Below, piece by piece: positions 28,545 through 43,345 of a DNA stretch of 58,368 nt. Every line of letters begins with the position of its first letter. The stretch's first letter is position 1. Position numbers and translations under genes: made by a program. The notes under the pieces are model-generated. The model was given only the letters and a program-made list of their open reading frames with translations, had not been told where the DNA came from and did no database searches. The stretch comes from a virus (Duplodnaviria > Caudoviricetes), in IMG/VR virus record IMGVR_UViG_3300046171_000264, positions 1 through 58,368 of that record. One strand, given 5' to 3'.

Positions 28545-29810
28545 TTACTTGGTGGCGGTGAGGGGACGTTTCCAAGCCTCAACCTGCTTGGCCCGGTAGG
28601 CAGAAACAGGGTCGGCGGCACCGCGACCGGCACCTTTCAGTGCGTTACGAAGAACGTTGGTGCTGTCTTCGCGGTCAGCGGAGTCCTGATTGATGGTTTC
28701 GCTCTCGGAGTCCTCTTCCTCTTCGTCGTGTTCCTCTGCGGAATCAACGTGAGCAGCGAGGATGCCTTCGACCACGCCTTGGATGTAGGCGGGCTCGGCG
28801 TCTTCGCGAGGTGCGGAACCGGTCAGGTTCTCGTAAGCCTGGGTGTAGAGCGTGGCGTCGTCGATGCCGTCGAACGTGAAGTCCTCGGCAAAAGCGGGAG
28901 CCAGACGCTGCAGGGTATCCAGGCGCGCCGCGACGAGCTGGTCGAGCTCGGCGGTATCGATGCGCGGGGTGTCGGAAGACGCGAGCTCTTCTTCAAGAGC
29001 GTCGGCACGACCTTCGGCGGCTTCTTTTTCGAGAGCCAGGGAATCGAAGTCGGCCTGCAGAGAATCAAGCTTGTTGGAAAGCTCATCGCGCTCGGTGGCG
29101 AAAGCCTCCAGCTGGCGCCCCATGTCCCGGGAGTAGGACTGGACCGCACTAGCTGTTTCTGCGGGCAAATCGATCTCCAGGCCGTCGAGTTTGACGGTTG
29201 CCATAACGGGAGATGCAGTTGAACTGGACTGGGGCGCCATTTCTTGCTCGGTGGGGTTGGCTACAGCATCAGCTGCATCCATACGATCAAGCAAGAGTCG
29301 AACCTCCGGGCCAGCCCGGCCGCGGGGGACGATGGCGATGTGGTTCACACGGATGTTGCGCTGAACGCCGGCATACTCTTCGCCCTCAGGGGTAACCCCG
29401 GGGGTCGGGTCGAAATCGACCTTGTAACCGGCAGATACCTGGCTGGCATCCTTTCTCTTGATCTTTTCAATTGCTTCGTCGTCTGTGACAAGGAGCGCAA
29501 CTTCTACAAAACCATCGTTGTACCTAACTTGACTACCGGAATAGCCAACTTGGAACTTCTTAGTGTTTAGAGAATCGAGAAGAACAGGAGGGTGACCCCA
29601 CGTTGCGGGTTTCATCCCGAACGTAGATAAAGAATCCGGGTTACTGACCTCTTCAGGAGGTCGGTACTCGCGGACCTGGGAACCATCAGCACGACGATAG
29701 AGTTGTGTACCTACACGGGCGGCGCGGGACCACACTCGGAGATAACCCTCCGGTGTGATCTCGCTTCCCGTTATGGGCGCAAAATCGTATCGGGTTACTG
29801 ATGTTTCCAT
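28545..29810 (-). CDS. DUF2213 protein (prohead protease/scaffold)
   Basis: ITPEGYL, EYRPPEEV, TWGHP, SAGY, NHIAIVPRGRAG; acidic coiled-coil C-terminal half. Confidence 0.9.
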   Translation of the reverse strand: METSVTRYDFAPITGSEITPEGYLRVWSRAARVGTQLYRRADGSQVREYRPPEEVSNPDSLSTFGMKPATWGHPPVLLDSLNTKKFQVGYSGSQVRYNDGFVEVALLVTDDEAIEKIKRKDASQVSAGYKVDFDPTPGVTPEGEEYAGVQRNIRVNHIAIVPRGRAGPEVRLLLDRMDAADAVANPTEQEMAPQSSSTASPVMATVKLDGLEIDLPAETASAVQSYSRDMGRQLEAFATERDELSNKLDSLQADFDSLALEKEAAEGRADALEEELASSDTPRIDTAELDQLVAARLDTLQRLAPAFAEDFTFDGIDDATLYTQAYENLTGSAPREDAEPAYIQGVVEGILAAHVDSAEEHDEEEEDSESETINQDSADREDSTNVLRNALKGAGRGAADPVSAYRAKQVEAWKRPLTATK

Positions 29811-29839: not shown

Positions 29840-30088
29840 TTGGTAGCTTTATACGAAGAACGGCTACCGCAGTTGGCAATTCACAGACAGTTGACGCTGT
29901 GCCGGCGCATCCGCGCATTGCGTGAGTACCGAGGGTTTACTCAGTTAAGAGTGGCTGGGGAATTGGGAATAAGTCAAGCGGCTTATTCGCGGTTTGAAAA
30001 AGGAGAAGTGGAAATATCAGTAATGAAGCTCATAGCTTTATGTGAAATTTACGATATTACTTTTCAATCACTGCTAAGAGACATCTAG
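29840..30088 (+). CDS. XRE-family HTH regulator
   Basis: RIRALRE.RGFTQ..VA.ELGISQAAYSRFEKG. Confidence 0.85.
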   Translation: MVALYEERLPQLAIHRQLTLCRRIRALREYRGFTQLRVAGELGISQAAYSRFEKGEVEISVMKLIALCEIYDITFQSLLRDI

Positions 30089-31353
30089 ATTACTTCTACC
30101 CAAGAAGTATCTAAGAACAGTTTTCCGCCGTCATTAGTAGGTGTAGCGGCAATAAGGAAAACGTCACTGACACCAGCTATGGTTCGCCCGAGTTGAAAAT
30201 TAAAATTATTAATGTCACCTAAGTCAAGTTTAGTCGCGCTAGTTAAATAACCGCTAATAAGCTCATCACCTCCTAAGTAGCTTGTTATGCCTGTGTTGTA
30301 TTGCACTAAATTAGCGGGGTGCGTGCTCCATGAGCCGCCAGTAATCGATGTGGGATTCAAAATTAGATGAAACTCCACAATATCGAGCTTGTTATTGGTG
30401 GTTTGCTCTACTGCTGCACTAATACTAGCTGGAATTACAACACTATCAATGCGTGCGCTATTGAGGCGTAAAGCAATAATAGGATAAGTAGTGCCTGCAG
30501 TTGTAAGGGTGACTGGTGTAGACCCAGTGGATACGCTGCGCTGCCGCGAAAAACCTTGATAACCGCCCTCGGATGCAACGGTGTTGCAAATTTGTTTGGC
30601 AGTCGCTTCTGTAGTGAGGACTCCGGTGTTCTCTATTTCCTGTCTCAACGGTAAGACAGCGGTGGTCATATAGGTAGTGCTGTTGATATTGTCGCTGTGA
30701 AATGTGTGCGCCAGGTTAAAGCGCCCCTCCACGATGAAGCCGCAACGAACATCACCGACACCTAACCATTCGAGATCGAACCAAACAATTTGAGCTGTAG
30801 CCAGGTCTAAATCGCGCCCCGATAAACCTGTCCCATCAAACGTATCGAAGTTCCAGTTACTTTGAGCGATACGGGTATTCACCACACTGCCACTGACAGA
30901 GCTGCGAAGAACAAAGTAAACGGTGTCTCCGTCTTGCTCGAGATATACGCCGTTCTCGGTGCCGAAATATCCGATGCGCTGTCGAAGGTTTGTTTGGGCA
31001 GTTGCGCAAACAAAGGAAGACATAGCGAGTAGCGACTTACCGGGCTGGTAAGGAAACACACGCCTGGTCTCGCGATAGACGTAGGCCCCGGACGTAACCG
31101 GCACTGTTAAATTTACGCAGCTTTCATTAGCGACGTAAGTAGTTGAACCGCCTGCATTGACTGCGGTGTCCCACTTATCATTTTCTTGATACCTGTGTTG
31201 GCTATCAAACAGAGTAAAGGGCGCACTGATACGTAAACGACCAAAAGCATCTCCGTCCGTACCGGTGCCGCCTTGTACGGATAACGGGTGCTCAGCATCA
31301 TTGCGCACCCAAACGAGCGCGTAGCGGTCATTGTCAATAATGCGTTGGCCCAT
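30085..31353 (-). CDS. Putative virion structural protein
   Basis: DAFGRLRIS.PFTLFDSQH...YQPGKS...WLGVGDVR pattern, familiar from aquatic phages. Confidence 0.7.
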   Translation of the reverse strand: MGQRIIDNDRYALVWVRNDAEHPLSVQGGTGTDGDAFGRLRISAPFTLFDSQHRYQENDKWDTAVNAGGSTTYVANESCVNLTVPVTSGAYVYRETRRVFPYQPGKSLLAMSSFVCATAQTNLRQRIGYFGTENGVYLEQDGDTVYFVLRSSVSGSVVNTRIAQSNWNFDTFDGTGLSGRDLDLATAQIVWFDLEWLGVGDVRCGFIVEGRFNLAHTFHSDNINSTTYMTTAVLPLRQEIENTGVLTTEATAKQICNTVASEGGYQGFSRQRSVSTGSTPVTLTTAGTTYPIIALRLNSARIDSVVIPASISAAVEQTTNNKLDIVEFHLILNPTSITGGSWSTHPANLVQYNTGITSYLGGDELISGYLTSATKLDLGDINNFNFQLGRTIAGVSDVFLIAATPTNDGGKLFLDTSWVEVI

Positions 31354-31356
31354 TAG

Positions 31357-32211
31357 TCAATCCTCATCGCGGCGGCTGGTCTTCCCCGAGCACTTCCATT
31401 TCGTCCTCGAGAGGCAGAGCGGTGTATTGCGGTCCTTGCCAGCGCAGTTTTTGTTGTGGGACTTCATATCGCCAAAGCTGCGGGCGCAGTAGCGGTCACC
31501 TTTGGCAGTGCCTGGGGCGATCTTGTACCCCTTGGCACCGTAGCGGACAGTACGAGTGCGGCCGGTCGTGGGGTTGCGGACCTTCTTGCTGTATTTCTTG
31601 CCGTCTTTAGTGTCACGGCGCGTCGGGAGCTGCAGCTGGACCGGCGCGTAATATTGAATGAGGCTGTCACGGCGCGGCTTACGGTAGCCAGGTTCATAGC
31701 GGCGGCGGAGTTTCTCCACGGTGAGTCGGTGAGAACGCACGCCACTGCGGAGGGAGGCGCGCCCGGCTTTGCCTGCGGCATACATGGCCTGACCAACAGC
31801 CATGCCGCGTTCGATCTCAGATTGAGCTGCCCTGCGCATGGCCTTCTCAGCTTTCACATTGGCGGAGCGCGCGGCCCGGCCAAGGCGCTCGGTCTTGGAA
31901 AGAGGTCTGATCTGCTCAAAAGCACCAAGGGTCAGCCGCATCGAGGGTTTCCGAGCTGTAGCCCGGTGCACAACCTCTGTTACGTCGCGCTGCGCCGCCC
32001 GTCGCATCGTTGTGGGACTGGTGAGAATTGCTTTGCGACTGCCTTTGTGTAGAAGGGCCGCGCCCACAACGCCGGCAGTCAGCCCGACTGCAGCAGCTTG
32101 GCCTCCCGAGCCCGCTCCTGTTTTGCGGCATGTCTTGGCAGGGGCGATGTGGCTCTGCCCGCAGGGGCGGCCCTTGCTATCAGCACGGAGTAAGGCTGAA
32201 GTAATAGTCAT
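31357..32211 (-). CDS. Basic modular head-region protein (R-x-D / CG..HI...C tag, hydrophobic helix)
   Basis: LRADSKGRPCGQSHIAPAKTCRK followed by AAAVGLTAGVVGAALL; C-terminal VRYGAKG...YCARS..WKC domain. Confidence 0.75.
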   Translation of the reverse strand: MTITSALLRADSKGRPCGQSHIAPAKTCRKTGAGSGGQAAAVGLTAGVVGAALLHKGSRKAILTSPTTMRRAAQRDVTEVVHRATARKPSMRLTLGAFEQIRPLSKTERLGRAARSANVKAEKAMRRAAQSEIERGMAVGQAMYAAGKAGRASLRSGVRSHRLTVEKLRRRYEPGYRKPRRDSLIQYYAPVQLQLPTRRDTKDGKKYSKKVRNPTTGRTRTVRYGAKGYKIAPGTAKGDRYCARSFGDMKSHNKNCAGKDRNTPLCLSRTKWKCSGKTSRRDED

Positions 32212-32221
32212 GGTGAAAGTG

Positions 32222-32662
32222 CTACTGGTGAAAGCCCACTGCCCAAGTGTCGGCCTTGGAGCTCACCATCACCGGGGCGCCGCTGCGCTCCTTGCGAGGG
32301 TCTTCGCGCCGCTTGCGGGAGACCAGGCGGCGGCGTTCAGCGGGGGAAAGCGACATGGCCTTGGCGGCTGGTAGGCATTTAGGCTTACCTTCACCCTTGG
32401 AGCGGTCACCGCAGGGGCCGAGGATCCGGCCGCTGCTGCTCATGCGGACCCATTTCTCCTTGAACCACTTGTCCAGACCGTCATTGCGGAACTTGCCGCC
32501 GCGCTTTTTGTACTCGCGCACCATCCAGGCGTTGGCGTACGCACTCGGGTAGATCTTGAACTTGCGCTTGGCCGCGGCTTTTACCGCGGCGTGGAGCTCT
32601 TTGTTGACGAAGATGGTTTTGCCGGTTGCATCACTGTGAAGTGAGGCAGGAGTCAGAGTCAT
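32222..32662 (-). CDS. Basic head-region protein
   Basis: YPSAYANAWMVREYKKRGG; RND-GLDKWFKEKWV..PCG..PKCLP; ends DTWAVGF. Confidence 0.75.
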   Translation of the reverse strand: MTLTPASLHSDATGKTIFVNKELHAAVKAAAKRKFKIYPSAYANAWMVREYKKRGGKFRNDGLDKWFKEKWVRMSSSGRILGPCGDRSKGEGKPKCLPAAKAMSLSPAERRRLVSRKRREDPRKERSGAPVMVSSKADTWAVGFHQ

Positions 32663-33555
32663 GGTTCAAAACCCTCAGCCCAGATGGAGTCACGACGAGA
32701 GGGACGGATGGCAGAAGGTTTACGGAAAGCGCGTTCCAGAGACCTACGACGACGACGAGTTTGCAGCGCTGTGCGACCCCTACGCAGTCCGCTGGCTATT
32801 TCACCAGTCTTAGCTTCGCGAAGCATTGTGGCTGCACCAACAGACAGTGCCGCGTTGGCAAGTATTTGTTTGCTTTCTTTCTTAAGGCCCATACCACGTG
32901 CCCCGGCTGCAGTTAATGCCTGCCCAGCTCCTGCAATTTGGAAAGCACGGGCTGCTCCAGCAGTATCACCACTGAGTGATTTACCTAGTCCGACGCCAGT
33001 GGCACCAGCTTGAAGGGCTAGCCCCCCGAGAACAGCACCGCTTGACGCTGCTTGTCTCAGTCCCGATTTGGGCTTCTTAGGCCTGACTTTGGTAGCAGGG
33101 CCTTTAGTACACTTTTCACCCTCGGAAATGGCACCTTTACCGCACTTCAGGTCGTTGCGAGCTTCAGCGACGTCCAACCGAGCTCGGATGTAGGTCGCGC
33201 CGCGGTCCTGGATACCCATCTCACAGGCGGTCAGGTATTCCTGCGGAGTGAGGGAGTCGCTGCGCTTACGCATAGATCCGCAGCTGCCGTCGCACTTGCG
33301 GCCTTTTTTCTTACCGCAGCCGCACTCGGCATCCATGGGCTTCTTGCCATACATGTCGCCATCCATGGGCTTCTTCATGCCGTAGCCGTCGGCGGCCGGT
33401 TTGCGCCGCTTACGAGAGTGGCCGGGCTTCATGCCCATGTCCATCTCCTCTTCCTCAGTAGGCTTATTACCGCGGGAGCGTTTGGCCATCGCCATGCCCT
33501 CGCGGATGCCCTTCTCGTAGGCTTTTGGCTTGGAGCGGCGGGCGGCGGCAGGCAT
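32659..33555 (-). CDS. Basic modular head-region protein
   Basis: RNDLKCGKGAISEGEKC plus hydrophobic segment; ends RRDSIWAEGF. Confidence 0.75.
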   Translation of the reverse strand: MPAAARRSKPKAYEKGIREGMAMAKRSRGNKPTEEEEMDMGMKPGHSRKRRKPAADGYGMKKPMDGDMYGKKPMDAECGCGKKKGRKCDGSCGSMRKRSDSLTPQEYLTACEMGIQDRGATYIRARLDVAEARNDLKCGKGAISEGEKCTKGPATKVRPKKPKSGLRQAASSGAVLGGLALQAGATGVGLGKSLSGDTAGAARAFQIAGAGQALTAAGARGMGLKKESKQILANAALSVGAATMLREAKTGEIASGLRRGRTALQTRRRRRSLERAFRKPSAIRPSRRDSIWAEGFEP

Positions 33556-33599
33556 GCTAACGGCCTTTACATGGGCTTTTCCAGGATAGCTACTTTGTG

Positions 33600-34469
33600 T
33601 TATTGCGTATCAAAAGGTTGCGGGGCTAACTGCTCAAATACTGCAGCTCTGTTGAGATCAGCGGGGCCTACAGTTGCCACTTTCGTCACTTCTTCACGGT
33701 GGCGCCGAGGTAACGCAGCGTAGGTGTCATCAATTGCTGCGATCTCGGGATCCCAGGGAGCTAGATAACATCGACACCTCGGATGGCAAGGAGCTTTTGC
33801 AATGACACGCTTGTAGATACGACCAGCGCGGGCATTACAGATAGGACACGTACGGTCATCACTGGTGGCGTACCACATCACTAAGTCAATTCCATTCACT
33901 GCGTAATACTGACTGCTGGCGCTGTTGTAAGCACGCAGTGATTCTGTGCGGGCAATAACATCAGCGCGAGATTTGACTACACCAAGCCGAAGACGCAGAT
34001 CCTTTGTAATAGCATCCGTAGGACGACCTTCTGCCACACCTTGTGCAACGAGTTCGGTGGCAGTCTCTGCGAAGGTCTGACCGTGACGCCGGAGGTATCC
34101 CTTTGACTGGGCCGCGGCGGCGACGGTTGCTTCGATAGGGATCGAGACGTCGATGCGCCGGCGAGAGGGAGTGAGCTCACGCATGGAGTCGCTCGCCACG
34201 CCGATGCCCTTCTGGTGGGAGCTACGGAGCAGGCCACGTAGAACTCGGTCGTAGGCGTCCGTACGCTGCGGGTTGAACGCAGGCACAAGCTGGCGAAACT
34301 CTTGCAGCAGAGCCACATTGCGATCCGCGGCAGGCTTGCCACTGCGAATCTGGATGCGGGTGCGGCGGATTAAACGGTTGAAGCTGCGGTCGAGAATACG
34401 ATTGAGCTGAGTGACTGTGACGTCCTCGGAGCGGCGGAGGGCGGCGTTGTAGCGCTCAAAGAGTTGCAT
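33600..34469 (-). CDS. MuF/SPP1 gp7-like minor head protein
   Basis: RADVIARTE...WYATSDDRTCPIC...PCHPRCRC. Confidence 0.9.
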   Translation of the reverse strand: MQLFERYNAALRRSEDVTVTQLNRILDRSFNRLIRRTRIQIRSGKPAADRNVALLQEFRQLVPAFNPQRTDAYDRVLRGLLRSSHQKGIGVASDSMRELTPSRRRIDVSIPIEATVAAAAQSKGYLRRHGQTFAETATELVAQGVAEGRPTDAITKDLRLRLGVVKSRADVIARTESLRAYNSASSQYYAVNGIDLVMWYATSDDRTCPICNARAGRIYKRVIAKAPCHPRCRCYLAPWDPEIAAIDDTYAALPRRHREEVTKVATVGPADLNRAAVFEQLAPQPFDTQ

Positions 34470-37400
34470 TAGGAGGCACGACGTAAGTCTTTGCGCACTG
34501 CTTCGTGGAACTCCAGCAGGTCTTTTTGGTTAAGCGCTTTGCCTTGACTGATCTTGGTCTGTAGTGCCTTTCTGCGGTTTGTCATAGCTGTGAAAAGAGG
34601 AGCATTAGTGTCTTTTGCGGCACTTATCAAGTTATTTATATCAGAGATGCCGTTCTTAGTCACAGGTCCGGCAGTGCCGAAATCAATCAGTTTTATGTCG
34701 TTGCCTTTAGTTAGAACATTTCCCATGTGAAGATCACCATGGGAGTAACCGAGCCTGTGCATCTTTTCTACTTCGCGTAGTGCGCTTTGAACCGCTATGC
34801 CTTGCTGTTTCGGTGTAAGTGACTTAACAGTATTGTAGTTTTTTAGATAATCCATTATTACTACGCCTTTCTTAGGATCAGCGTTGTATATTTTGGGAAC
34901 GCTTATACCCGCAGCATGCAACGCATTCTGCGTATTTACTTCGTTAGCGAACGCTCCTTTGTTTACTTTGCCTTTTGGGGTCTTAATTACATACTTCTCG
35001 TCTTGTGAGATCCAGGTGCGACCGCTAACGCCCTCAGTGAGGTATGTGGCTCCCTGAGGGGGGTTGTTCTTGTCGAACGGCTTCGCGTTATTGCGTATGC
35101 GTTGGGCAGCTGGCGTCCATTTTGGAGCGGTGATCGCCAGGGCAGTGCCACCAATAGCAGCAGCAGCCAGTGCTAAGCGCTTAGTGCGTTTACCTGTTTG
35201 CGGCGCACCCGTGTTTACTTTAGTTGCTGGGCCGACATGGCACTTTTCGCCTTTAGAGATAGCGCCTTTGCCACACTTGAGATCAACACGGGTATCAGCT
35301 GAGTCGCCGCGAATGAGTTTGGCGACATAATCGGCTTGCTCATCTGGGATTTCAGTGAGTTTACCCATGTTTTTAAGTGCCCACATATTCCCACCGCGAA
35401 CACCCTTAAGCTCTTTAAAGCCGAACTTCCTGTAAATAGCATTACGCTTGTTGCCTAAACCATCATCTTTATATGGGTTGTTGAATAAAACTGCATTTTC
35501 AGGCATTTCATTGAGCTGCGCTTTAAACATAGACTTAACTTGCTTTGCAACACCTAATCCCTGTGCTCTGCTAAGCCCTTCTTTCTGATCAAAACTTAGA
35601 TCCGTTTGAAACGCGATACCAAACTTGTCAAAAGAACCCGCTTTACCACTAGGGGTAGATACAAATGTGACAAGTGTGTCATCGACAGCCCCGACACTCA
35701 TGACATGCCCGGTTTGAGGATTTTTAAATGTACTGAAATTATTAGTAGGATCTACTTTTGTCAGCTTAAGACCTTGAGCGTCTGCGGCGACAACAGCCAA
35801 ACCTACTTTGGCTTTACCTAATAGTTTACTGGCCGGTCCTTGGTATTTTTCAGGAAGCTTACTAATCGTGTCCCTAACTTTTTTAGAAGACATCTTCTGT
35901 ATTCCAGTGTTGATATGTTTTGCCGAGGTTTTGTACAAAGGTATATTCTGCCTATTTTTAAACGCCGCCCTTCCGCCTACAACAGCCGCTCCTGTAATAG
36001 CCGCGGCTCCTGCAGCAAGCGCCAGTTTCTTACCGCGGCTGCTGGACTTAGAGGATTTACTTTTAGAAGCAGAGTTTCCGCTTGCTGTTTTTCTGCACTC
36101 ATGCGCCTTCGGAATGTGCGAGGCCCCACAGGGCTTTCCCCGCAAGTCCGCCCTTACAGCTAAGTACGCATCAATGCGCGCTTGTTGGAGCTCATCTTTC
36201 CGCATGCGCTTCAAAGCGGCCTCGGCAGCTTCGCGGGTGGCGTACCGAGGTGTCCCATCCTTGTTCTTCTGTCGCATCAAATCAGCAATACGCTGAGCAT
36301 TAGAGCGCCGACGAGCGGGGCGGTCTGGCTTCTCTGGTGAAGGTGTGCTTGACCGGACTCGGGTTTGAGAGCTTCGCAGAGTGGTCAAACGTTCAAAGCC
36401 ATTGCTCCGCAAATAGTCAGCCGCAGGAGCTGTAGTGCTGAAGCTGCGCCCTGAGAGCTCGGATGCTGCGAGCCGGATCTCTCGATCTGTGGCTGTGAAC
36501 GTAGGGCTACCAATGACCTTGCTGGAGTAGTACTCCTTAGCTACCAAATCACTAAGGCCCTGCCCCATCTTGGTTCCGACTGCTTCAGGCTTGTTCAAGC
36601 TCTTGGCTAAATAGCGCGATTGCCCGATACGTGCGCTAGTCAACAGCTCGCTGTAACCAGCTTTGCGTGACTCAGCTGAAAGCGCGGCACCCGCAGGTTG
36701 ACGAACTTCATCAGCGATTCTTCCGAAATATCGGTCAAAACCATCACGAGTATCTCTGTAAAACGTGTCTGCAAGCTGCTTACGGCTGACTGCAGTCGAT
36801 CGACCTCTGGGGGCATCTCCGATAATCCTGTCGAGGTTGCTGACTGCACGCGCTCGGGCCTCATCGGAGAAATTAGCTGTGCCAGGTCCTACAACCCGAT
36901 TTAAAAACGCATTGCGAGAATCAGCATCTTTAAGATTTACACCTTCTTGTCGCGCTAACGCTTGTAAGTTAAACGCTTCACGGTTTAGTGCAGTAGCAAC
37001 AGAGCGCCGTACAGCTGTAGCATCATCACCTTTTTTAAGTTTAAAGCCAAACTGACGAGATAAATACTGATTTGTAGCTGGCTCGGAAAAAGTACTTCCA
37101 TCACCTGCGCCCCCCGCGTTAGTACGAGTAGCTCCCCAAAAAGTTTCTAGGTTTTTCTGCCTCCACGTAGAAGCATTCATATTCAACTCTTTAGCTTCAA
37201 TATCTAACGCTTTTATCTTATTCTCTAGTACTTTTGCATTTCCATACTCTGTTGCGCGACGTTCTAGCTGAGTAGGCGTACTAAGTAAGGCACCTCGCAT
37301 AGCCTCAGGGCCTCTAGCCGATTCTCCTGCTGCTCTAGCTACTACCTCACCGGCAGCAGAACTACCAGCAGCACGTCGCTCTGCCCTCGCTCTACGAATT

Positions 37401-37954
37401 ACAGGAGTTGCATCCAGTACACGATTAATCCCAGCCGCTACCGCGTCATCGATCTGTCGACCCACTCCATCTCGGTAGAAGGATGCTCGCTTCAGTTGAT
37501 TGTGACTGAATAAACCAAAGCCAACAACTGCAAGACCAGCAGCGATTCCTCCAGCACGACGCTCAAGATCAGCCTGCAGTTTCTTCTTGCGTTGGATGTC
37601 ACCAGGAGTGGCTTTCACAACCCCGCGAACGATGGCACGCTTGCCACCTTCGATCTCAGAAAAGCTCCCTTTACGCACACCTTTAGATATACGCTTAACC
37701 CCACGCTCAATGTTGGCCAACCCACTAATTGGATCTGTACGAACTGCCCTGAGATGTGAATCCGGGCCTTTACCTTTTAACCGGCAATCCCAGTTTGGAG
37801 GAATGCACCGGCCACCACACTTCACATTGGGCGGTGTGCACGTCACCTGACGTCTAGTCTTGCCAGAGCGGCTCCGCGCAGCATCCATCCGGGCCTTGGT
37901 TTCCAGGTACGCCGCGGTGCGAAAACCTTGAGGTGTGATGTTGGGTTGTGTCAT
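34469..37954 (-). CDS. 1161-aa modular polyprotein: three Cys-tag/hydrophobic-helix units, GNAT-like domain, C-terminal protein kinase-like domain
   Basis: CGGRCIPPNWDC, CGASHIPKAHEC, CGKGAISKGEKC; RNAIYRKFGF; kinase motifs EGVSG/VIK/NEV/HGDLHMGNVL/IDFG. Confidence 0.8.
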   Translation of the reverse strand: MTQPNITPQGFRTAAYLETKARMDAARSRSGKTRRQVTCTPPNVKCGGRCIPPNWDCRLKGKGPDSHLRAVRTDPISGLANIERGVKRISKGVRKGSFSEIEGGKRAIVRGVVKATPGDIQRKKKLQADLERRAGGIAAGLAVVGFGLFSHNQLKRASFYRDGVGRQIDDAVAAGINRVLDATPVIRRARAERRAAGSSAAGEVVARAAGESARGPEAMRGALLSTPTQLERRATEYGNAKVLENKIKALDIEAKELNMNASTWRQKNLETFWGATRTNAGGAGDGSTFSEPATNQYLSRQFGFKLKKGDDATAVRRSVATALNREAFNLQALARQEGVNLKDADSRNAFLNRVVGPGTANFSDEARARAVSNLDRIIGDAPRGRSTAVSRKQLADTFYRDTRDGFDRYFGRIADEVRQPAGAALSAESRKAGYSELLTSARIGQSRYLAKSLNKPEAVGTKMGQGLSDLVAKEYYSSKVIGSPTFTATDREIRLAASELSGRSFSTTAPAADYLRSNGFERLTTLRSSQTRVRSSTPSPEKPDRPARRRSNAQRIADLMRQKNKDGTPRYATREAAEAALKRMRKDELQQARIDAYLAVRADLRGKPCGASHIPKAHECRKTASGNSASKSKSSKSSSRGKKLALAAGAAAITGAAVVGGRAAFKNRQNIPLYKTSAKHINTGIQKMSSKKVRDTISKLPEKYQGPASKLLGKAKVGLAVVAADAQGLKLTKVDPTNNFSTFKNPQTGHVMSVGAVDDTLVTFVSTPSGKAGSFDKFGIAFQTDLSFDQKEGLSRAQGLGVAKQVKSMFKAQLNEMPENAVLFNNPYKDDGLGNKRNAIYRKFGFKELKGVRGGNMWALKNMGKLTEIPDEQADYVAKLIRGDSADTRVDLKCGKGAISKGEKCHVGPATKVNTGAPQTGKRTKRLALAAAAIGGTALAITAPKWTPAAQRIRNNAKPFDKNNPPQGATYLTEGVSGRTWISQDEKYVIKTPKGKVNKGAFANEVNTQNALHAAGISVPKIYNADPKKGVVIMDYLKNYNTVKSLTPKQQGIAVQSALREVEKMHRLGYSHGDLHMGNVLTKGNDIKLIDFGTAGPVTKNGISDINNLISAAKDTNAPLFTAMTNRRKALQTKISQGKALNQKDLLEFHEAVRKDLRRAS

Positions 37955-37957
37955 CGA

Positions 37958-39805
37958 TCAGTACCCTTCGTTGTAGGCCCGGAAAGCATCGGCCTCGTTA
38001 TCGGGCACCGGTGAAAGCCCTACTACATTCTGCCCGGGAAACAGTTTCTGCACCGCAGCCCTTGCAGCGCGGAGTGCGTTGAATCCTGTGGTGTAAGGGC
38101 CGTCCGTAATAGCACTATCAAGGCTGAAGCGCGCTCGGTAAAGCTTCCGTGCTCGAGTGCGGTGGGGTCCAATGATCAGGATCGGAGCTGCAGAGCCACT
38201 ATCGATGCGCTGCCCGTCAGGGCCGACAAGCGGGCCAGCGACGACATCATCAACACGATGGGTGATACGAATGCGGAGTCCTTCAGCGGAATCGAAGTGC
38301 GTGTCCCCGCGGTTGGGCGGCAAGATGCCTTGCTCCCCGCGGTTGGGCGGCAAGATGCCTTGCTCCCCGTCCTCGGAAGCTGTCGGCCGCTCAGCTGCGG
38401 CTTCAGCTGGCTGCACCGCTTGCTTCTGCGCTTGGTAGCCGGCCATCTGCGATTGGAATTGAGCGTCCGCGGAGATAGCGAGCCGCTCGGTGATCACTTC
38501 ATTGAGTTTTGTATCGATGCTGTAATCTGTGCCGCTGAAGCGGGACTCACGGACCTCTAGAGCGTTGAGCACCCCATATTGCAGGTACTGAATGTCGGAA
38601 GCTGCCGTGAGCTGTCTCAGCTCGGCCTTCTCCTTGTCGGTCTGCGTAAAGACCGAGGGAAACTGGACCGACCAGGACTCGGGGACACGGCCTCGGGTTG
38701 GTCCTTCGCTCGAGGCCAGGATGTAATTGAAGACTTCTGTGATAGGCGTGCGGCAGTAAACCTCTTGCCACTGCTCCACCAATGAGGCCCACATGCGCTC
38801 CTCGAAGCGGCCTTCCTTACCCAAGCCACCAGGGCTGTCGCCCATCAGGATGGAAGCCGGCCAACCCGTGGAAGCCTGCAGATCCTTCACGAAGGGGTCC
38901 GTAGCCGTAGCGATATTGCTCAGTGCTCGGTTGAGGAAGCTCAGTTCCTCTTCGGTGTCGACCACCATGCCGCCATAGAGGCTACGGCTGAGGCTGTTGG
39001 CCTCCAGCCGTTTGCGCAGGTCGCTTTCGTGGCCAGCGGCGATACGGTTGAAAAGCCCGGGGATCTTGTGTACGAACAGGTCGGCATCCGACGCCATAGC
39101 TTCGAGGCCTGATATTGCGGTCTCATAGCGTTTGAATGATTCCCAGATCAGCTGCAGCACAGACTGTCCCCACCCTGTGTTGCGGGAGCGCATGTTCCAT
39201 GGCAGGTACAGACCGTCGAAGCGGGCTACGCGAGAGCTGTGCACGCGAATATTGACGTAGCCGCTGGTCTGCTCTGGCGTGATGCGCTGACTGGTGGTGA
39301 TCCGGTAGTGCGAAGGACGGGAGTAGTCCGTAATGGAGAAGTCTTCGGGGATCAGTTCGTGCCGCGAAAGCGGGATATACCCGCGCACTCCGCGGATGCG
39401 CTTGTTTTCGACCGGGTCCTCAGGCTGCCCACCGTCATCGACGAGCAGGACCAGGCCGGCGCCTCCATAAAGGCGTTGCAGCTTAACAACCTCAGAAAGT
39501 GCGAAGTGAAACTGTGTTGTCTGGAGATATTGATTAAACGAGGCGCGCAAGTCAGCACTATCGGCCGCTGCGTCCCCACCTAAAGAGATGGTAGGTACAT
39601 GACGCAGGATCTCGTCACTGATGGCATCAACGTAGCGACGTGGGATGCCACTGGTGTATAGAGATTCGAGTTCAGCTTCAGTAAGAAGCGTGTTAAAGCG
39701 TACGTTTGTGCTAACTGTTTTGTCTTTCTTAGCTACGCCTAAACCTGTAAGTGCATTAATTAACGCACCATCATTCCGGTAGTCTTCTGATGTTGAATTG
39801 GCCAT
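37958..39805 (-). CDS. Portal protein (DUF1073 family) with C-terminal extension
   Basis: RLYGGAG, VHSSRV.RFDG, WGQSVL, GWPASILMG.SPGGL; lies between terminase and MuF. Confidence 0.9.
   Translation of the reverse strand: MANSTSEDYRNDGALINALTGLGVAKKDKTVSTNVRFNTLLTEAELESLYTSGIPRRYVDAISDEILRHVPTISLGGDAAADSADLRASFNQYLQTTQFHFALSEVVKLQRLYGGAGLVLLVDDGGQPEDPVENKRIRGVRGYIPLSRHELIPEDFSITDYSRPSHYRITTSQRITPEQTSGYVNIRVHSSRVARFDGLYLPWNMRSRNTGWGQSVLQLIWESFKRYETAISGLEAMASDADLFVHKIPGLFNRIAAGHESDLRKRLEANSLSRSLYGGMVVDTEEELSFLNRALSNIATATDPFVKDLQASTGWPASILMGDSPGGLGKEGRFEERMWASLVEQWQEVYCRTPITEVFNYILASSEGPTRGRVPESWSVQFPSVFTQTDKEKAELRQLTAASDIQYLQYGVLNALEVRESRFSGTDYSIDTKLNEVITERLAISADAQFQSQMAGYQAQKQAVQPAEAAAERPTASEDGEQGILPPNRGEQGILPPNRGDTHFDSAEGLRIRITHRVDDVVAGPLVGPDGQRIDSGSAAPILIIGPHRTRARKLYRARFSLDSAITDGPYTTGFNALRAARAAVQKLFPGQNVVGLSPVPDNEADAFRAYNEGY
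38304..38369. repeat. 30-nt in-frame tandem duplication in the portal linker (GEQGILPPNR x2)
   Basis: tccccgcggttgggcggcaagatgccttgc repeated exactly. Confidence 0.95.
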
Positions 39806-39996: not shown

Positions 39997-40326
39997 ATGG
40001 TTGACCATCAAATCGATGGGTCGAGTCTCCTAACCAAGCGGCAAGCCAAGCAGCAATTTCGCGAAGGGATCCTCAATAGCTGGGGGTCCCTTTGTGCTTA
40101 TTGCGGTCGCCCAGGAGACACGCTGGACCATGTGCGCCCTCGGAGTCGAGGCGGGCCTACCGACAGGCACAACCTTGTGTGCTGCTGCATCTGCTGCAAC
40201 CAAGCAAAAGGAAGCGAAGGCGACTGGCGCCATTGGTTCAGACAACAGAAATGGTGGTCTCCATACAGAGAGCACGCAATCCAGGTTTGGTTAAATACAG
40301 AGACTCAAGACTGGGCTACGGTCTAA
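39997..40326 (+). CDS. HNH endonuclease
   Basis: CAYCG...TLDHVRPRSRGG...NLVCCC..CNQAKG. Confidence 0.9.
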   Translation: MVDHQIDGSSLLTKRQAKQQFREGILNSWGSLCAYCGRPGDTLDHVRPRSRGGPTDRHNLVCCCICCNQAKGSEGDWRHWFRQQKWWSPYREHAIQVWLNTETQDWATV

Positions 40327-41726
40327 ATGTTGTCGAAGAAACCTGCTGTAGCTGGAGTGTCTGGAATTAAAGAGCAAGCAAACGCCAGCGCCATCACAGT
40401 GTCGTCGTGCGCTCCACTAGCAGCCTGCCGAGCACCGTTCTCCTGCTGTTGAAACGCTCGTAGCTCGTCTGCAATAATGCCCGAGGGAAAGATCAACTCA
40501 TCGCGCTCGAGGATATAAAGAATGCGATCTGTGGCTACGGTTTTGGACGCCCTGCTCGTATTGAAAGTCTCAATGGCGTAATTAGGTAATATGTGCTGCA
40601 ATGCTTCAGCTATAACAGCACCCATCGCTTGTTTCTCGACAATTACACGTTGAGGCATATAATCCTTTATTAGCTCACTTACATGCTTCAAGCTGTAATC
40701 AGTGCTCTTGCCATTCTCTCGGTACATACCAACGATCTCGTAGGGCGTGGACGTTATGTCCATCACCATTGCTACGAAATAGTCGTTCCCTCCGGCATTG
40801 GGATCAATTCCTATGACATAACTACGGTTAATCGACCCACACTCGCGCCAGTGACCCCTCGCGGCTTTATTAATCAGCTCATTGGGGTAGATCTGGGTAT
40901 CAGTGGCCCCAAACTGAAGCTCGTACTCGGAGTTCCATGCCGCCGTGGTCATGCGGCGAGACTCACGAGTCTTACGCGCCCAGCTGGGGTCAGCCCCGTA
41001 GATCGGGTGCTGCGAGTAGTGAATGGTGACCTTGTTCCAGTTACCTTCGTCGGTGTGCCAGAGCTGGCCAAACCAGTCCTGTTCGGTGTCGGGCGTGGAG
41101 ACCACGATCACCTTGGCGGCGTCACCCACCATGGAGAGTGTGGGCATGGCGCCGCGGTAGATCTCTGCAGCGCCCTCAAGAAAGGCGGCCTCATCCATAA
41201 ACAGGACGGAGCAGCTCGGGATGCCCCGGGCAGCGCGGGGTGAGGCCGGCAGGAAATACAGCGTACCCCGGCCTTCAAACGCTAACTGTGTAGTGCTATC
41301 AGTGAGGTAGCGAATGGTCTCGCCCCGCAGGCTGTTCGCCATTGCACGCACACGTCGACCGAGCTCGGAGGCGTCCGTCTGCGTCTTGCTGAAGACAACC
41401 GCGGCGAAGCCTCGTTCTGTCAGCGCGCGGTCGAGCAGGTAATTGCAGACAGTTTCGGAAACACCGGTCTGGCGTGACTTGTTGACGAGTGTATTGGGGT
41501 TTGCGTTGATGGACCGGACCAGATCTTCCTGGTACACGTACGGGTCAAAAGGTGCCACCGTCCCGCTGGTGCGAATCCAGGTGCGGCGCGCGAAATCAGG
41601 CCAGTTTGCGACTGTGGGCAACGTGGAGGCTACACCAGACTCGTAATTGGCAGCCCGCGCTTTACGTCGCTCCAGCTCTGTCTGCAGTCGTTCTACACGC
41701 TTGCGGAGGGCAGAAACAGAAGCCAT
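40323..41726 (-). CDS. terL: Terminase large subunit
   Basis: Walker A KSRQTGVS, Walker B LFMDEAAF, VSTP, nuclease IGIDP and HDDTVMALA. Confidence 0.95.
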   Translation of the reverse strand: MASVSALRKRVERLQTELERRKARAANYESGVASTLPTVANWPDFARRTWIRTSGTVAPFDPYVYQEDLVRSINANPNTLVNKSRQTGVSETVCNYLLDRALTERGFAAVVFSKTQTDASELGRRVRAMANSLRGETIRYLTDSTTQLAFEGRGTLYFLPASPRAARGIPSCSVLFMDEAAFLEGAAEIYRGAMPTLSMVGDAAKVIVVSTPDTEQDWFGQLWHTDEGNWNKVTIHYSQHPIYGADPSWARKTRESRRMTTAAWNSEYELQFGATDTQIYPNELINKAARGHWRECGSINRSYVIGIDPNAGGNDYFVAMVMDITSTPYEIVGMYRENGKSTDYSLKHVSELIKDYMPQRVIVEKQAMGAVIAEALQHILPNYAIETFNTSRASKTVATDRILYILERDELIFPSGIIADELRAFQQQENGARQAASGAHDDTVMALAFACSLIPDTPATAGFFDNI

Positions 41727-42421: not shown

Positions 42422-42611
42422 GCTCTGCCTGGTCGATGGCGACTAAATACCGGATGCGTTCTTGATAGAGCCCGGTGTAAAGGCCGTTGGTACGCCCGCT
42501 GTTGATGTAAAGGCGGTGGATGTAGTCAGCGCGGGCTTGCTGCTCATGTGGATTTAGTGCTGGATGCATGCTGAAAGGTACTCCGTGGTCATGGCGTGAT
42601 TCTTTTGTCAT
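42393..42611 (-). CDS. Hypothetical protein
   Basis: Likely start MTKESR overlapping the thyX stop; SGRTNGLYTGLYQE motif. Confidence 0.55.
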   Translation of the reverse strand: MTKESRHDHGVPFSMHPALNPHEQQARADYIHRLYINSGRTNGLYTGLYQERIRYLVAIDQAEHAAASSSSK

Positions 42612-43345
42612 GGCGCTAAACGAGCTTTGCCCCAGCGATTTTTTGTGTACCAGTCGTGAACTGGCGCGATCCACTCTGCGAAATGCGGCATCATCAACTG
42701 GCACATCTGATGAATTTCTATCTGCGCATCCGCCTTGCCCCGCAGGTCGAGGAAGTGCATAAGGCTGCGCAGGTTGAACGTTACGACAAAATGCTGTCGG
42801 TAATCAAACGGCAGCACTCCTCTAGCGTGCTCCTCCGAAATACCAGCATCTAGCGCCTCTTTATAACGCCGAGCAGAGTCCTCGCAGTGCTGCAGATCCT
42901 TGGCCCGTAGCCGCTCGTCGTATGTGTATCGCTTGCCCTGGCGATTGGTGTAATCACCAACAGGTCGCAGGTAGAACGCCTCTTCGACATCAACAATGCC
43001 CTCAGCCACAGCAGCGATTCGCTGGCCGGTGTAGCGCATGGACTGAACGTCCCAGCTGGTGCCCACCCTGTGAGTCCGAGCTTGTTGGATTACCGAGTGA
43101 GGGAAATAGCCAACAGCAAATGTGATACTGGCGTGTTCCAGTGGGCCGTAATGGCCGCGACCTCCCAAAAGCAGGTGCTTTACGATTCGATCACCAGCTT
43201 CTGACTCGATCCGTAGTTGGTCAAAACACCGTTCAAGAAAAATCCAAGACTCTGAATAGTCCTGGTGCATGGCCTGCCAGCAAAGCGTGGCTGGCTCCCT
43301 GGTCTGGCTTAAAACGCCAACCTGAAAGCGCGGGTCAATTTGCAT
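42608..43345 (-). CDS. thyX: Flavin-dependent thymidylate synthase
   Basis: GHYGPLEH, RTHR...SWDVQSMRY, ARGVLP, NLRSLMHFLDLR...AQIEI. Confidence 0.95.
   Translation of the reverse strand: MQIDPRFQVGVLSQTREPATLCWQAMHQDYSESWIFLERCFDQLRIESEAGDRIVKHLLLGGRGHYGPLEHASITFAVGYFPHSVIQQARTHRVGTSWDVQSMRYTGQRIAAVAEGIVDVEEAFYLRPVGDYTNRQGKRYTYDERLRAKDLQHCEDSARRYKEALDAGISEEHARGVLPFDYRQHFVVTFNLRSLMHFLDLRGKADAQIEIHQMCQLMMPHFAEWIAPVHDWYTKNRWGKARLAP

Follow-up and report, generated by a model that had tools for sequence, protein, structure and literature searches.

The motif of T4 gp21 is L/I-x-E, and the capsid targeting sequence (CTS) of this phage comprises 10 residues. MARTX proteins are toxins secreted by bacteria and include a cysteine protease domain of their own, and MuF-fused polymorphic toxins are said to have been described in temperate phages by Jamet et al. 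in 2017. For phage SPN3US, the accessible text of PMC10052503 reports 14 gp245 sites in 9 proteins, demonstrated by mass spectrometry. In the case of the polyvalent proteins (Iyer, Burroughs, Anand, de Souza and Aravind, 2017; PMC5512222), processing is assigned to a zincin-like MPTase domain, and the text of the article contains 0 mentions of cysteine, transmembrane or linker. Regarding Pa193, the sections available of PMC11042391 describe a fragment of gp24 bound within the capsid, called 'possibly cleaved', and uncharacterised ORF products (gp20, gp21, gp24, gp27 and gp31) found by LC-MS in virions and encoded near capsid, neck and tail genes.

The DNA analysed here, a stretch of 58,368 nucleotides to which we refer as the window, comes from an uncultured aquatic phage, a siphovirus whose nearest cultured relative is the cyanosiphovirus S-CBS4. 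Three genes of its head operon encode proteins that appear to be strings of self-contained units, each with an R-x-D motif, a Cys-containing tag, a basic linker, one Gly/Ala-rich helix and phage-specific cargo. We found no earlier description of the tag motif. The proteins, with their exchangeable enzymes, look like packaged, protease-cut effectors.

Results and Discussion

Organization of the head operon

On the minus strand, the window encodes a 1161-aa polyvalent protein (34469..37954), in which a conserved N-terminal domain bearing a 4-Cys tag is followed by units 2 and 3, a stand-alone MuF-like minor head protein of 289 aa (33600..34469; PF04233, 53.6 bits; phrog_115), a 298-aa protein (32659..33555), a DUF5872 protein (32222..32662; PF19197, 48.9 bits), a 284-aa protein (31357..32211) and a DUF2213 protein (28545..29810; PF09979, 140 bits; phrog_530, 'head maturation protease'). 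Pfam identifies the portal (PF06381, 37958-39805) and the capsid protein (PF09950, 26978-27895), and a virion protein of phrog_1645 lies at 30085-31353. The 1161-aa ORF is separated from the portal gene by a 3-nt gap and overlaps the MuF gene by one base, a gene order that suggests tight coupling of portal, MuF and tagged gene. The DUF5872 gene, located between tagged genes, has the leader MTLTPASL-HSD-A and no tag, and relatives have fused forms in which DUF5872 (PF19197) precedes the 284-aa unit. The phage also has a long-tail module, which encodes a J-like protein and a tape measure protein of 1585 aa. In S-CBS4 the corresponding slot holds glycosyltransferases, a methyltransferase and an HNH endonuclease, unrelated to the virion.

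Architecture of the tagged proteins

In a six-frame translation of the whole window, the pattern CG-x3-I-x5-C has exactly five matches, all on the minus strand and confined to the 284-aa, 298-aa and 1161-aa ORFs, so that the five copies in three genes reported in the preliminary description are all recovered. The order it proposed (R-x-D, Cys tag, basic linker, Gly/Ala-rich helix, cargo) holds at each copy. The consensus covers around 20 residues with two Cys, (K/R)(P/A)-C-G-x3-I-x5-C-x-(K/V)-G; Pfam scans gave no match covering it, and AlphaFold2 assigns pLDDT <50 to tag, linker and hydrophobic helix. The two KCGKGAIS copies had been said to differ mostly at synonymous sites, and their 25-codon core indeed comprises 6 identical, 15 synonymous and 4 non-synonymous codons.

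All features of the 1161-aa protein are given on the minus strand. Its first tag, CGGRCIPPNWDC (residues 46-57, 37784..37819), preceded by C-x6, had been listed as one more copy of the module; it does belong to a conserved unit, but it is a 4-Cys variant (C-x6-CG-x-RCIPP-x-WDC), with R-M-D (residues 22-24, 37883..37891; conserved in 114/114 aligned homologues) 21 residues upstream and the helix 75 residues downstream. This variant has 164 unique copies in relatives, and the distance from tag 1 to hydrophobic Gly/Ala-rich segment 1 (residues 133-152, 37499..37558; Kyte-Doolittle 17-mer maximum 1.79) is 75-78 residues in 112 of the tags examined. Unit 2 consists of tag, helix and GNAT-like cargo. 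The R-A-D that precedes its tag (residues 601-603, 36146..36154) is conserved in 102/102 aligned homologues and lies at the C-terminus of a predicted helix, which in the AlphaFold2 model spans model residues 2-26 and stops just before R27. Tag 2, CGASHIPKAHEC (residues 609-620, 36095..36130), is followed by a linker of net charge +7, hydrophobic segment 2 (residues 643-662, 35969..36028) and a GNAT-like domain (around residues 675-885, 35300..35932; AlphaFold2 pLDDT ~90), for which GNAT acetyltransferases make up the majority of the top Foldseek matches, none of them at E<=1e-3. Unit 3, with tag, helix and a RIO-like kinase, starts at R-V-D (residues 889-891, 35282..35290), with R-G-D (882-884) just upstream, and continues with tag 3, CGKGAISKGEKC (residues 894-905, 35240..35275), hydrophobic segment 3 (residues 925-944, 35123..35182) and a RIO/ABC1/APH-type kinase-like cargo (34604..34996). 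The latter scores 37, 33 and 31.2 bits with Pfam RIO1, ABC1 and APH, the RIO1/ABC1/APH/Pkinase matches span residues 987-1117, and in the PDB it matches kinase 9x4g_B (E 3.8e-5). The only hydrophobic 17-mers of the protein are at residues 133-152, 643-662 and 925-944, each after a tag. An uncut chain with three such helices could not place both the kinase and the GNAT in the cytoplasm; such a placement would require that the chain is cut or that the helices do not span the membrane.

The 298-aa protein has a Cys-rich N-terminal part, R-N-D (conserved in 120/120 homologues) with the tag CGKGAISEGEKC (33109-33144, minus strand), a Gly-rich hydrophobic region (32983-33036, minus strand) and the C-terminus RRDSIWAEGFEP. 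In the 284-aa protein, the leader MTITSALLRAD is followed by the tag CGQSHIAPAKTC (32128-32163, minus strand), a hydrophobic segment (32044-32103, minus strand), a basic body and a Cys-rich C-terminal domain. This protein terminates in SRRDED, and in relatives the same C-terminal RRD runs on into another tag.

Conservation and cargo exchange

The unit is retained across hundreds of metagenomic relatives, in which 663 unique tag modules were counted, while the cargo differs between them. The tag is borne by 119/120 of the listed homologues of the 1161-aa protein (168 found), and among the matches listed for the 298-aa and 284-aa proteins by 119/120 and 107/120, respectively. Within the 120 listed homologues of the 1161-aa protein, 272 of 278 tags have a hydrophobic segment <=90 residues downstream, and 149 post-tag segments fall into 6 clusters of 78, 50, 14, 5, 1 and 1. 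Pfam cargo domains include LRAT/NlpC, kinase, ADPrib_exo_Tox, DnaJ, Lipase_3 and ATLF-like (zincin-like), and a search with a tag profile retrieved tag-bearing proteins with InPase, ART-PolyVal, PolyA_pol, HD, NUDIX, His_Phos_1 and PARP domains. These domains, together with the clusters, support the earlier proposal that the tag is linked to varied enzymatic cargos; the idea that exchangeable cargo is joined to the tag rather than to MuF also stands, MuF being a separate 289-aa gene with neither tag nor toxin fused.

All 142 loci of an IMG/VR set bearing the two commonest tag variants match operon proteins of the window and belong to a single siphovirus clade that shares this head operon; 136 of them match tag-free head genes, and the other 6 are short and match tag-bearing proteins only. 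Two complete relatives contain 5 and 9 CG-x3-I-x5-C motifs, every one within the head block, and the 69-kb genome of S-CBS4 contains 0. Neither the 1161-aa nor the 298-aa protein had a tblastn match among GenBank phages, and the genes were not found in cultured relatives.

The presence of one helix per unit, the location of the genes in the head operon and the frequency of NlpC/LRAT cargo (50/149 post-tag segments) would also fit channel-forming ejection proteins like T7 gp14-16 or P22 gp7/16/20, with the helices as a trans-envelope conduit and enzymatic cargo secondary (e.g. NlpC/P60 wall digestion). We regard this as highly improbable, given that the phage has a long-tail module, which is the usual source of the conduit in siphoviruses, the cargo in the window is kinase and GNAT-like rather than muralytic, genomes differ in their number of units (1 to at least 5) and a second lineage, described below, lacks helices.

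R-x-D as a junction between units

R-x-D lies <=14 residues upstream of 492 of the 499 tags other than the 4-Cys type (212/212, 250/256, 21/21 and 9/10 in four variants). The residue that follows is A, L, F or S, and the tag begins 2-11 residues on. Points of gene fission and fusion fall exactly at R-x-D; ORFs without a following unit terminate 3-6 residues past it, and those with class-1 cargo end in ...LIRNDRADAT. Among stand-alone proteins, 81/85 open with the 11-residue leader M-x-L-T-P-x-x-L-R-x-D, copies of which inside proteins have R-x-D on both sides.

Observed numbers of R-x-D were compared with those expected from shuffles, in the head block and in the other ORFs of three genomes. 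The head block of the window contains 39 vs 19.3 expected (a value reached by 0/500 shuffles) and the other ORFs 18 vs 34.9 (0/500 as low); the corresponding figures are 34 vs 17.1 and 42 vs 69.5 in G001, and 41 vs 24.0 and 41 vs 63.4 in G002. The motif is thus enriched around twofold in head proteins and depleted around twofold elsewhere, a pattern that nine control motifs did not show. The head-block enrichment is partly circular because tagged proteins fed the hypothesis; the depletion is not, nor is the excess in the DUF2213 protein, which has no tag. This protein contains 9 R-x-D vs 2.5 expected, one of which, R-M-D-A, coincides with the domain boundary; in the S-CBS4 homologue the count is 7 vs 1.9 expected.

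These data give indirect support to R-x-D as a functional site. It could be structural and not a cleavage site, since its spacing to the tag is fixed in two variants, with 2 residues from D to the first Cys in 212/212 KGAIS and 21/21 KSGI tags. The proteins would then remain uncut, whole multi-domain polyvalent proteins, as in full-length transfer of the N4 vRNAP type, and R-x-D would cap a Cys hairpin; full-length transfer is noted for some polyvalent proteins in the available text of PMC5512222. This seems unlikely to us, as R-x-D also closes units with no tag following (SRRDED in the 284-aa protein, and the class-1 cargo ORFs), is overrepresented in the DUF2213 scaffold, which has no tag, and underrepresented outside the head proteins in three genomes, and the second lineage carries the tag without it.

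Proposed processing and delivery

The DUF2213 protein would combine a prohead protease, in its N-terminal domain, with a scaffold in its C-terminal part; the protease label comes from the PHROG annotation only. A profile match relates the protein to the Pa193 gp24 scaffolding protein (E 3.8e-4). Its AlphaFold2 model is poor (pLDDT 52.8), and a fold search with it placed T4 gp21 at rank 14 (E 0.036), yet with the best TM-scores of the list.

Based on the sequence evidence, we lean, if only slightly, towards the three genes encoding polyvalent internal head proteins that are packaged, cut at R-x-D and delivered as tagged units at infection. Precursors would enter the procapsid, where the DUF2213 prohead protease would cleave after R-x-D, destroying its own scaffold part and freeing the units, which would exit with the DNA during infection. 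If the protease were active solely inside proheads, the depletion of R-x-D in cytoplasmic enzymes would be unexpected. The interpretation advanced in the preliminary description is, overall, partly supported.

A second lineage

In an unrelated 105-kb phage, 12 of 13 tags are within the head module. One tag is carried by a prohead protease of the Mu-like type (Mu-like_Pro), and a polyvalent protein is tagged as well. Every context recovered is a head operon, as had been anticipated; the restriction to DUF1073/DUF2213/DUF2184 operons does not hold, since this phage has a Mu-like protease and a capsid of another family. Its tags have neither R-x-D nor hydrophobic helix, so that tag, junction motif and helix are separable parts, and R-x-D is unbiased in this genome. 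The tag is probably a protease-independent handle for head loading or retention, possibly through binding of DNA, scaffold or metal, and the helix would be an optional, lineage-specific addition that may tether units to the host membrane.

Weakly hydrophobic, Gly/Ala-rich helices could also be signal anchors of the SAR type, in late membrane-anchored proteins that stay unpackaged in the producing cell (e.g. for superinfection exclusion, lysis timing or envelope remodelling); LRAT/NlpC cargo could target the envelope, and the S-CBS4 slot is occupied by virion-unrelated genes. The helices are mostly internal rather than N-terminal, however, and kinase, GNAT, ADP-ribosyltransferase, DnaJ, NUDIX and PolyA-polymerase activities belong to the cytoplasm and are typical of polyvalent proteins that are injected. 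With the tight portal/MuF coupling suggested by gene order, and tags that in the second lineage lack helices and in one case sit on a prohead protease, which must enter the procapsid, we consider this alternative quite improbable.

Comparison with known systems

Like MARTX toxins, whose effectors are delivered in a single chain and freed by an internal protease at short junctions, the tagged proteins combine multiple effector domains in one chain, which would likewise be freed at short junction motifs, but there is no homology and MARTX lack a virion context. MuF-fused toxins share with them exchangeable toxin-like cargo that is encoded beside the portal and presumably enters the head; here MuF stands alone and the cargo is on the tag. 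Pbunaviruses Pa193 and E217 have the same head families (DUF1073 portal, DUF2213 'scaffolding' gp24, cement protein and DUF2184 capsid), and no tagged units were detected in cultured phages of this type when the 1161-aa and 298-aa proteins were used as tblastn queries. The gp24 fragment inside the Pa193 capsid and the virion proteins of Pa193 mentioned above fit the proposed packaging and processing.

The likeness to Alt and the internal proteins of T4, and to the ejection proteins that the prohead protease cuts in the giant phages SPN3US and phiKZ, lies in a short, conserved N-terminal leader ending in a three-residue motif whose last residue is acidic, in the several sites in scaffold and internal proteins and in an ADP-ribosyltransferase among the cargo. 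There is no sequence relationship; internal proteins are cut at x-x-E by gp21 in T4 and by gp245 in SPN3US, while the motif proposed here would be Arg-x-Asp, ending in Asp and not Glu, the proteins are polyprotein strings and the retained product would open with a Cys tag.

As far as the available text of PMC5512222 goes, polyvalent proteins resemble the tagged proteins in having many unrelated effector-type domains per chain, encoded beside virion genes, and tag-bearing relatives share ART-PolyVal and InPase, signature domains of that study. Processing into units is postulated there as it is here. Unlike those proteins, the window encodes no zincin-like MPTase domain, and its units are set off by R-x-D, Cys tag and helix.

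Tagged units in the head operon

The tagged genes lie between the portal gene and the scaffold and capsid genes of a head operon on the minus strand of this 58,368-bp IMG/VR virus record, whose completeness is estimated at 83%. The operon comprises the large terminase (40323-41726), the portal (PF06381; 37958-39805), the 1161-aa ORF (34469-37954), a stand-alone MuF protein (33600-34469), the 298-aa ORF (32659-33555), a DUF5872 protein (32222-32662), the 284-aa ORF (31357-32211), the virion protein phrog_1645 (30085-31353), the DUF2213 protein (28545-29810), a cement protein (PF22758; 27912-28532) and the capsid protein (PF09950; 26978-27895), all on the minus strand. A tape measure protein, a J-like tail protein and a family-A DNA polymerase are also encoded, from which we take this to be a long-tailed phage. 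Two genes sit inside the operon on the opposite strand, an HTH_3 regulator (29840-30088, +) between the DUF2213 and phrog_1645 genes and an HNH endonuclease (39997-40326, +) between portal and terminase; the nearest cultured relative, the Synechococcus siphovirus S-CBS4, has a 'transcriptional repressor' at an equivalent place. In the C-terminal extension of the portal, the ten residues GEQGILPPNR are perfectly duplicated in tandem (38309-38368, -), and three R-x-D sites follow within this extension (residues 499, 517 and 533). The window further encodes a sigma-70 family factor (54369-55241, -) and a ThyX thymidylate synthase (42608-43345, -).

The tagged unit is a real, conserved feature. 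Six-frame translation of the whole window gave five matches to CG-x3-I-x5-C, all of them in the three ORFs named in the preliminary description. Downstream of each copy lies a Gly/Ala-rich hydrophobic segment, and the tagged proteins have no other segments of this kind. The claim that the KCGKGAIS tag is conserved as protein was borne out: its two copies use different codons at 19 of the 25 core positions, and 15 of these 19 changes are synonymous. The linkers after the tags are basic (net charge +7 and +4). The unit as originally described, i.e. an R-x-D junction, a two-cysteine tag, a basic linker, a hydrophobic helix and a cargo, stands overall, but the first copy of the 1161-aa protein is a four-cysteine variant (C-x6-CG-x-RCIPP-x-WDC), with R-M-D 21 residues upstream and the helix 75 residues downstream. 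Metagenomic relatives numbered 168, 317 and 355 for the 1161-, 298- and 284-aa proteins, respectively, and among the matches listed the tag was present in 119/120, 119/120 and 107/120. In the listed relatives of the 1161-aa protein, a hydrophobic 17-mer was located within 90 residues downstream of 272 of 278 tags, and almost no other hydrophobic segments were seen. AlphaFold2 modeling of the module gave pLDDT values below 50 for tag, linker and helix, with no confident structure, and a search of the ESM Atlas with residues 1-600 of the 1161-aa protein yielded no usable match.

The layout of a SAR or signal-anchor endolysin, an N-terminal weakly hydrophobic helix and then a muralytic domain, does not fit the 1161-aa protein, two of whose three helices are internal and whose cargo is a kinase and a GNAT-like domain. 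A MuF-fused polymorphic toxin is ruled out, the MuF ORF being 289 aa long and having PF04233 (residues 139-236) as its sole domain. The MuF ORF is separate and the tags are in other ORFs, in agreement with the proposal that the exchangeable cargo is attached to the tag rather than to MuF.

Several other features of these genes deserve mention. The 298-aa protein has a second cysteine cluster, ECGCGKKKGRKCDGSCGS, upstream of its tag (residues 70-97; window ~33295-33350, -), the K-C-D-G of which is kept in 118 of 119 homologues; proteins of an unrelated 105-kb phage, described below, likewise start with ...FNGGCGC. The DUF5872 protein has a leader as in the tagged units (MTLTPASL-HSD-A) but no tag, although it carries a motif, GPCG-x11-KC, of tag-like appearance; its end, KADTWAVGF, resembles that of the 298-aa protein, RRDSIWAEGF, and in relatives DUF5872 is fused in front of the 284-aa unit. 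The C-terminal third of the 284-aa protein (31357-31620, -) is a Cys-rich domain common to cultured phages at 43-71% identity, namely cyanomyoviruses of the S-TIM5 group, roseophages CRP-212 and CRP-7 and several Vibrio phages, where it is annotated as hypothetical.

R-x-D junctions and leader

Among 663 unique modules, R-x-D was found within 14 residues upstream of the tag in 212/212, 250/256, 21/21 and 9/10 tags of the four variants other than the four-cysteine one, and in 0/164 tags of the latter. The spacing between R-x-D and tag is 2, 5 or 10-11 residues. The motif also terminates units that are not followed by another tag: the 284-aa protein ends in SRRDED, where relatives go on as SRRDADGQACG, the 298-aa protein ends in SRRDSIWAEGFEP, and ORFs that stop after the GNAT-like cargo end in LIRNDRADAT. 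Stand-alone tag proteins start with an 11-residue leader, M-x-L-T-P-x-x-[LIV]-R-x-D, in 81 of 85 cases as judged by pattern, and internal copies of this leader carry a second, flanking R-x-D (RRTDS-ALSPKAVRQD-LKCG). Since leader copies are bounded by R-x-D, cleavage after each site would yield identical products whether the units are encoded separately or fused.

Bias in R-x-D content and a candidate protease

Expected R-x-D counts were obtained from within-protein shuffles, on ORF sets called mechanically (at least 90 aa, greedy) of which a few may be spurious. Two relatives with complete genomes, ~60-65% identical (G001 and G002), were included. Enrichment in the head block, which is partly circular, amounted to 39 sites against 19.3 expected in the 10 head ORFs of the window, 34 against 17.1 in G001 and 41 against 24.0 in G002, values reached in each case by 0 of 500 shuffles. 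The depletion elsewhere is not circular: the 31 other ORFs of the window contain 18 sites (34.9 expected), those of G001 42 (69.5 expected) and those of G002 41 (63.4 expected), with 0/500 shuffles as low in any of them, so that R-x-D is depleted about twofold in non-head proteins. The primase-like protein, the DNA polymerase and the terminase of the window have 0 sites each, against 2.0-2.6 expected for each. Nor is circularity involved in the result for the DUF2213 protein, which is tag-free and taken alone has 9 sites against 2.5 expected (reached by 0/300 shuffles), including an R-M-D-A that falls precisely where the Pfam domain gives way to the acidic C-terminal part. Its homologue in S-CBS4 has 7 against 1.9 (reached by 1/500 shuffles), and the other S-CBS4 proteins show mild depletion, with 42 sites against 55.4 expected (19/500 shuffles as low). 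The 105-kb phage was unbiased, both in its head block (24 against 21.9) and in its other ORFs (76 against 72.3). A cause at the DNA level or in generic composition is ruled out by the opposite sign of the bias in head genes; in addition, nine control motifs lacked the pattern of R-x-D (K-x-D was mildly low in the window and G001), and the 105-kb phage has no bias.

On the most economical reading, R-x-D is what a phage protease recognises, and the likeliest candidate enzyme would be the DUF2213 protein's N-terminal domain. T4 gp21 processes internal proteins at short motifs whose last residue is acidic. Cleavage of internal and ejection proteins at such motifs is likewise established for SPN3US gp245 (PMC10052503). 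The DUF2213 protein matches phrog_530, annotated as 'head maturation protease' (E 1.5e-81), and its C-terminal part is scaffold-like. His73, Ser126 and His157 of its N-terminal domain are invariant and make candidate catalytic residues. The AlphaFold2 model of the N-terminal domain, from a shallow alignment (23 sequences, 75-93% identical), is poor (pLDDT 52.8); with it, Foldseek gave no match at E<=1e-3, and T4 gp21 (5jbl_A) appeared at rank 14 with E 0.036 and the highest TM-scores (0.42/0.47), so that a protease fold could not be confirmed in this way. Scanning IMG/VR for more diverse DUF2213 sequences returned close relatives only, and a PDB search with the single sequence gave nothing informative. 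The DUF2213 profile matched the homologous gp24 of Pseudomonas phage Pa193 in the PDB (E 3.8e-4). A helix-turn-helix fragment of gp24 is bound inside the Pa193 capsid and is considered by the authors of that study to be possibly cleaved, and LC-MS of virions detected the products of uncharacterised ORFs near capsid, neck and tail genes, namely gp20, gp21, gp24, gp27 and gp31 (PMC11042391).

Depletion of R-x-D in cytoplasmic enzymes is unexpected if the protease is confined to proheads. A 2026 preprint reports cleavage of host sensor proteins in vivo by prohead proteases (PMC12991175), and on that basis such a protease could conceivably act beyond the prohead as well. That R-x-D is avoided twofold outside the head genes would then reflect a DUF2213 protease active beyond the prohead and a phage proteome that evolved to escape its own protease. 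Cleavage would often expose Leu or Phe as first residue, which could act as a degradation signal limiting the lifetime of injected enzymes.

Distribution of the tag and nature of the cargo

IMG/VR was searched with degenerate DNA patterns for the two commonest tag variants, which were found in 101 and 85 stretches, representing 142 loci in all. Every one of the 142 matches operon proteins of the window; 136 match tag-free head genes and six short loci match tag-bearing proteins only. Synteny with the window is preserved where enough of the contig is present. Since all loci match the window's operon, within IMG/VR these two variants represent one clade. The capsid protein and portal of S-CBS4 are 57% and 34% identical to those of the window, with unrelated genes between portal and protease, and the tag was nowhere found in its genome. 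Among GenBank phages there were no matches for the 1161- and 298-aa proteins (tblastn) or for 16 kb (megablast), and the 284-aa protein was matched in its C-terminal domain alone. A profile built from 101 diverse modules was run on 1.84 billion representative proteins and retrieved 593 clusters at E<=1e-3, with up to six modules per protein. Large members of this set carry polyvalent-protein domains (ART-PolyVal, InPase, PolyA_pol, HD, NUDIX, His_Phos_1 and PARP). Pfam scans of the window, the relatives and the profile-found proteins gave no match over the tag itself.

The cargo is diverse. The 149 post-tag segments from the listed relatives of the 1161-aa protein fell into six clusters, and those of the wider locus set into 25, one of them chained together by low-complexity Gly/Ala-rich sequence. 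Pfam cargo in the window and relatives includes LRAT/NlpC, RIO-like kinase, ADP-ribosyltransferase and DnaJ domains, with weaker hits to a class-3 lipase (at threshold) and to an anthrax-LF-like zincin (below threshold); the ATLF-like zincin exceeds the cut-off only in one protein, P0393 (29.8 vs 27.4 bits). The 1161-aa protein combines a GNAT-like domain with a kinase, and relatives combine LRAT, ADP-ribosyltransferase, kinase, zincin-like, NUDIX, His_Phos_1, InPase and PolyA_pol domains. The middle cargo of the 1161-aa protein, with no Pfam match, was modeled at pLDDT ~90; most of its top Foldseek matches are GNATs (probability up to 0.97), although the E values are 7e-3 to 5e-2. A given cargo class can occupy the second or the third position, so the units are shuffled.

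The tag in other lineages and its possible role

Two of the profile-found proteins come from one 105-kb phage contig. It has 12 of its 13 tags in five genes of a head module with a different capsid family (phrog_1005), and the remaining one outside the head block, in a 1097-aa ORF; a DUF932 gene adjoins this module, and the window also encodes a DUF932 protein (47636-48712, -). In a 406-aa protein of the 105-kb phage's head module, a leader and a tag are joined to a Mu-like prohead protease (PF10123), and M(TQ)FYKLFN forms the start of two proteins. Its tags lack both R-x-D and the downstream helix; a hydrophobic-x-N motif stands 3-8 residues upstream of every one, and the head block contains more copies of it than expected (90 vs 53.3, reached by 0/300 shuffles). 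Because hydrophobic-x-N is not depleted outside the head block, the parallel with R-x-D is only partial. A third tag context, G-x-G-T-G-Q-P-C-G-E-S-H-I, was also recovered. Every recovered context is a head module, but confinement to the head operons originally named does not extend to the 105-kb phage, given its capsid family and Mu-like protease.

R-x-D as a universal partner of the tag is ruled out, being missing within 14 residues upstream of all 164 four-cysteine tags and absent from the second and third lineages; nor can the helix be obligatory, as none follows the tags of the 105-kb phage. Tag, junction motif and helix are therefore separable, and the tag is the common element. For its role we favour loading or retention inside the head through binding to scaffold, DNA or metal, and consider protease recognition and membrane insertion less likely, since the tag is common to lineages with different proteases, is once attached to the protease itself and is followed by a basic linker. 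The tag may serve different head lineages as a general handle, independent of the protease, by which arbitrary enzymes are loaded and delivered; each lineage would pair it with the motif of its own protease (R-x-D for DUF2213, hydrophobic-x-N for the Mu-like enzyme). That the tag is a cross-lineage handle, that the DUF2213 protease works outside the prohead and that the exposed Leu or Phe is a degradation timer, all three together, seems to us rather improbable.

Significance and relation to known systems

Proteins that a phage carries alongside its DNA are the earliest weapons a host encounters, yet recognising them by sequence is difficult. If leader, junction motif and Cys tag mark packaged and processed units, effectors could be read directly from metagenomes, and the catalogue is already large, the 593 protein clusters including kinases, acetyltransferases, ADP-ribosyltransferases, NlpC/LRAT hydrolases, J-domains, NUDIX and phosphatase domains. 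R-x-D is also a predicted specificity for the DUF2213 head protein family, widespread but uncharacterised, and the specificity of a viral protease could perhaps be inferred by sequence alone, through the avoidance and enrichment of a tripeptide across a proteome. The tag is in turn a candidate natural handle to load foreign proteins into phage heads.

We class the tagged proteins with the polyvalent proteins described by Iyer et al. (2017), with which they have in common at least two unrelated effector or enzyme domains per polypeptide and a location of their genes among virion genes. The signature domains of polyvalent proteins (ART-PolyVal, InPase, MuF, LPDs and MPTase) occur in none of the window's own tagged proteins, whereas they are present in two tag-bearing proteins of another lineage (P0439 and P0427). 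In the text of that article (PMC5512222), 'cysteine', 'transmembrane' and 'linker' have 0 occurrences, and literature listings on DUF2213, DUF5872 and capsid targeting gave no description of the leader, the Cys tag or a grammar based on R-x-D. PHROG and Pfam scans detected no T4 IP or Alt family. In their working mode the tagged proteins would resemble the internal proteins of T4 or giant phages. The short N-terminal leader of the stand-alone units, which ends in the candidate protease motif, is as a pattern comparable to that of T4-type capsid-targeted internal proteins.
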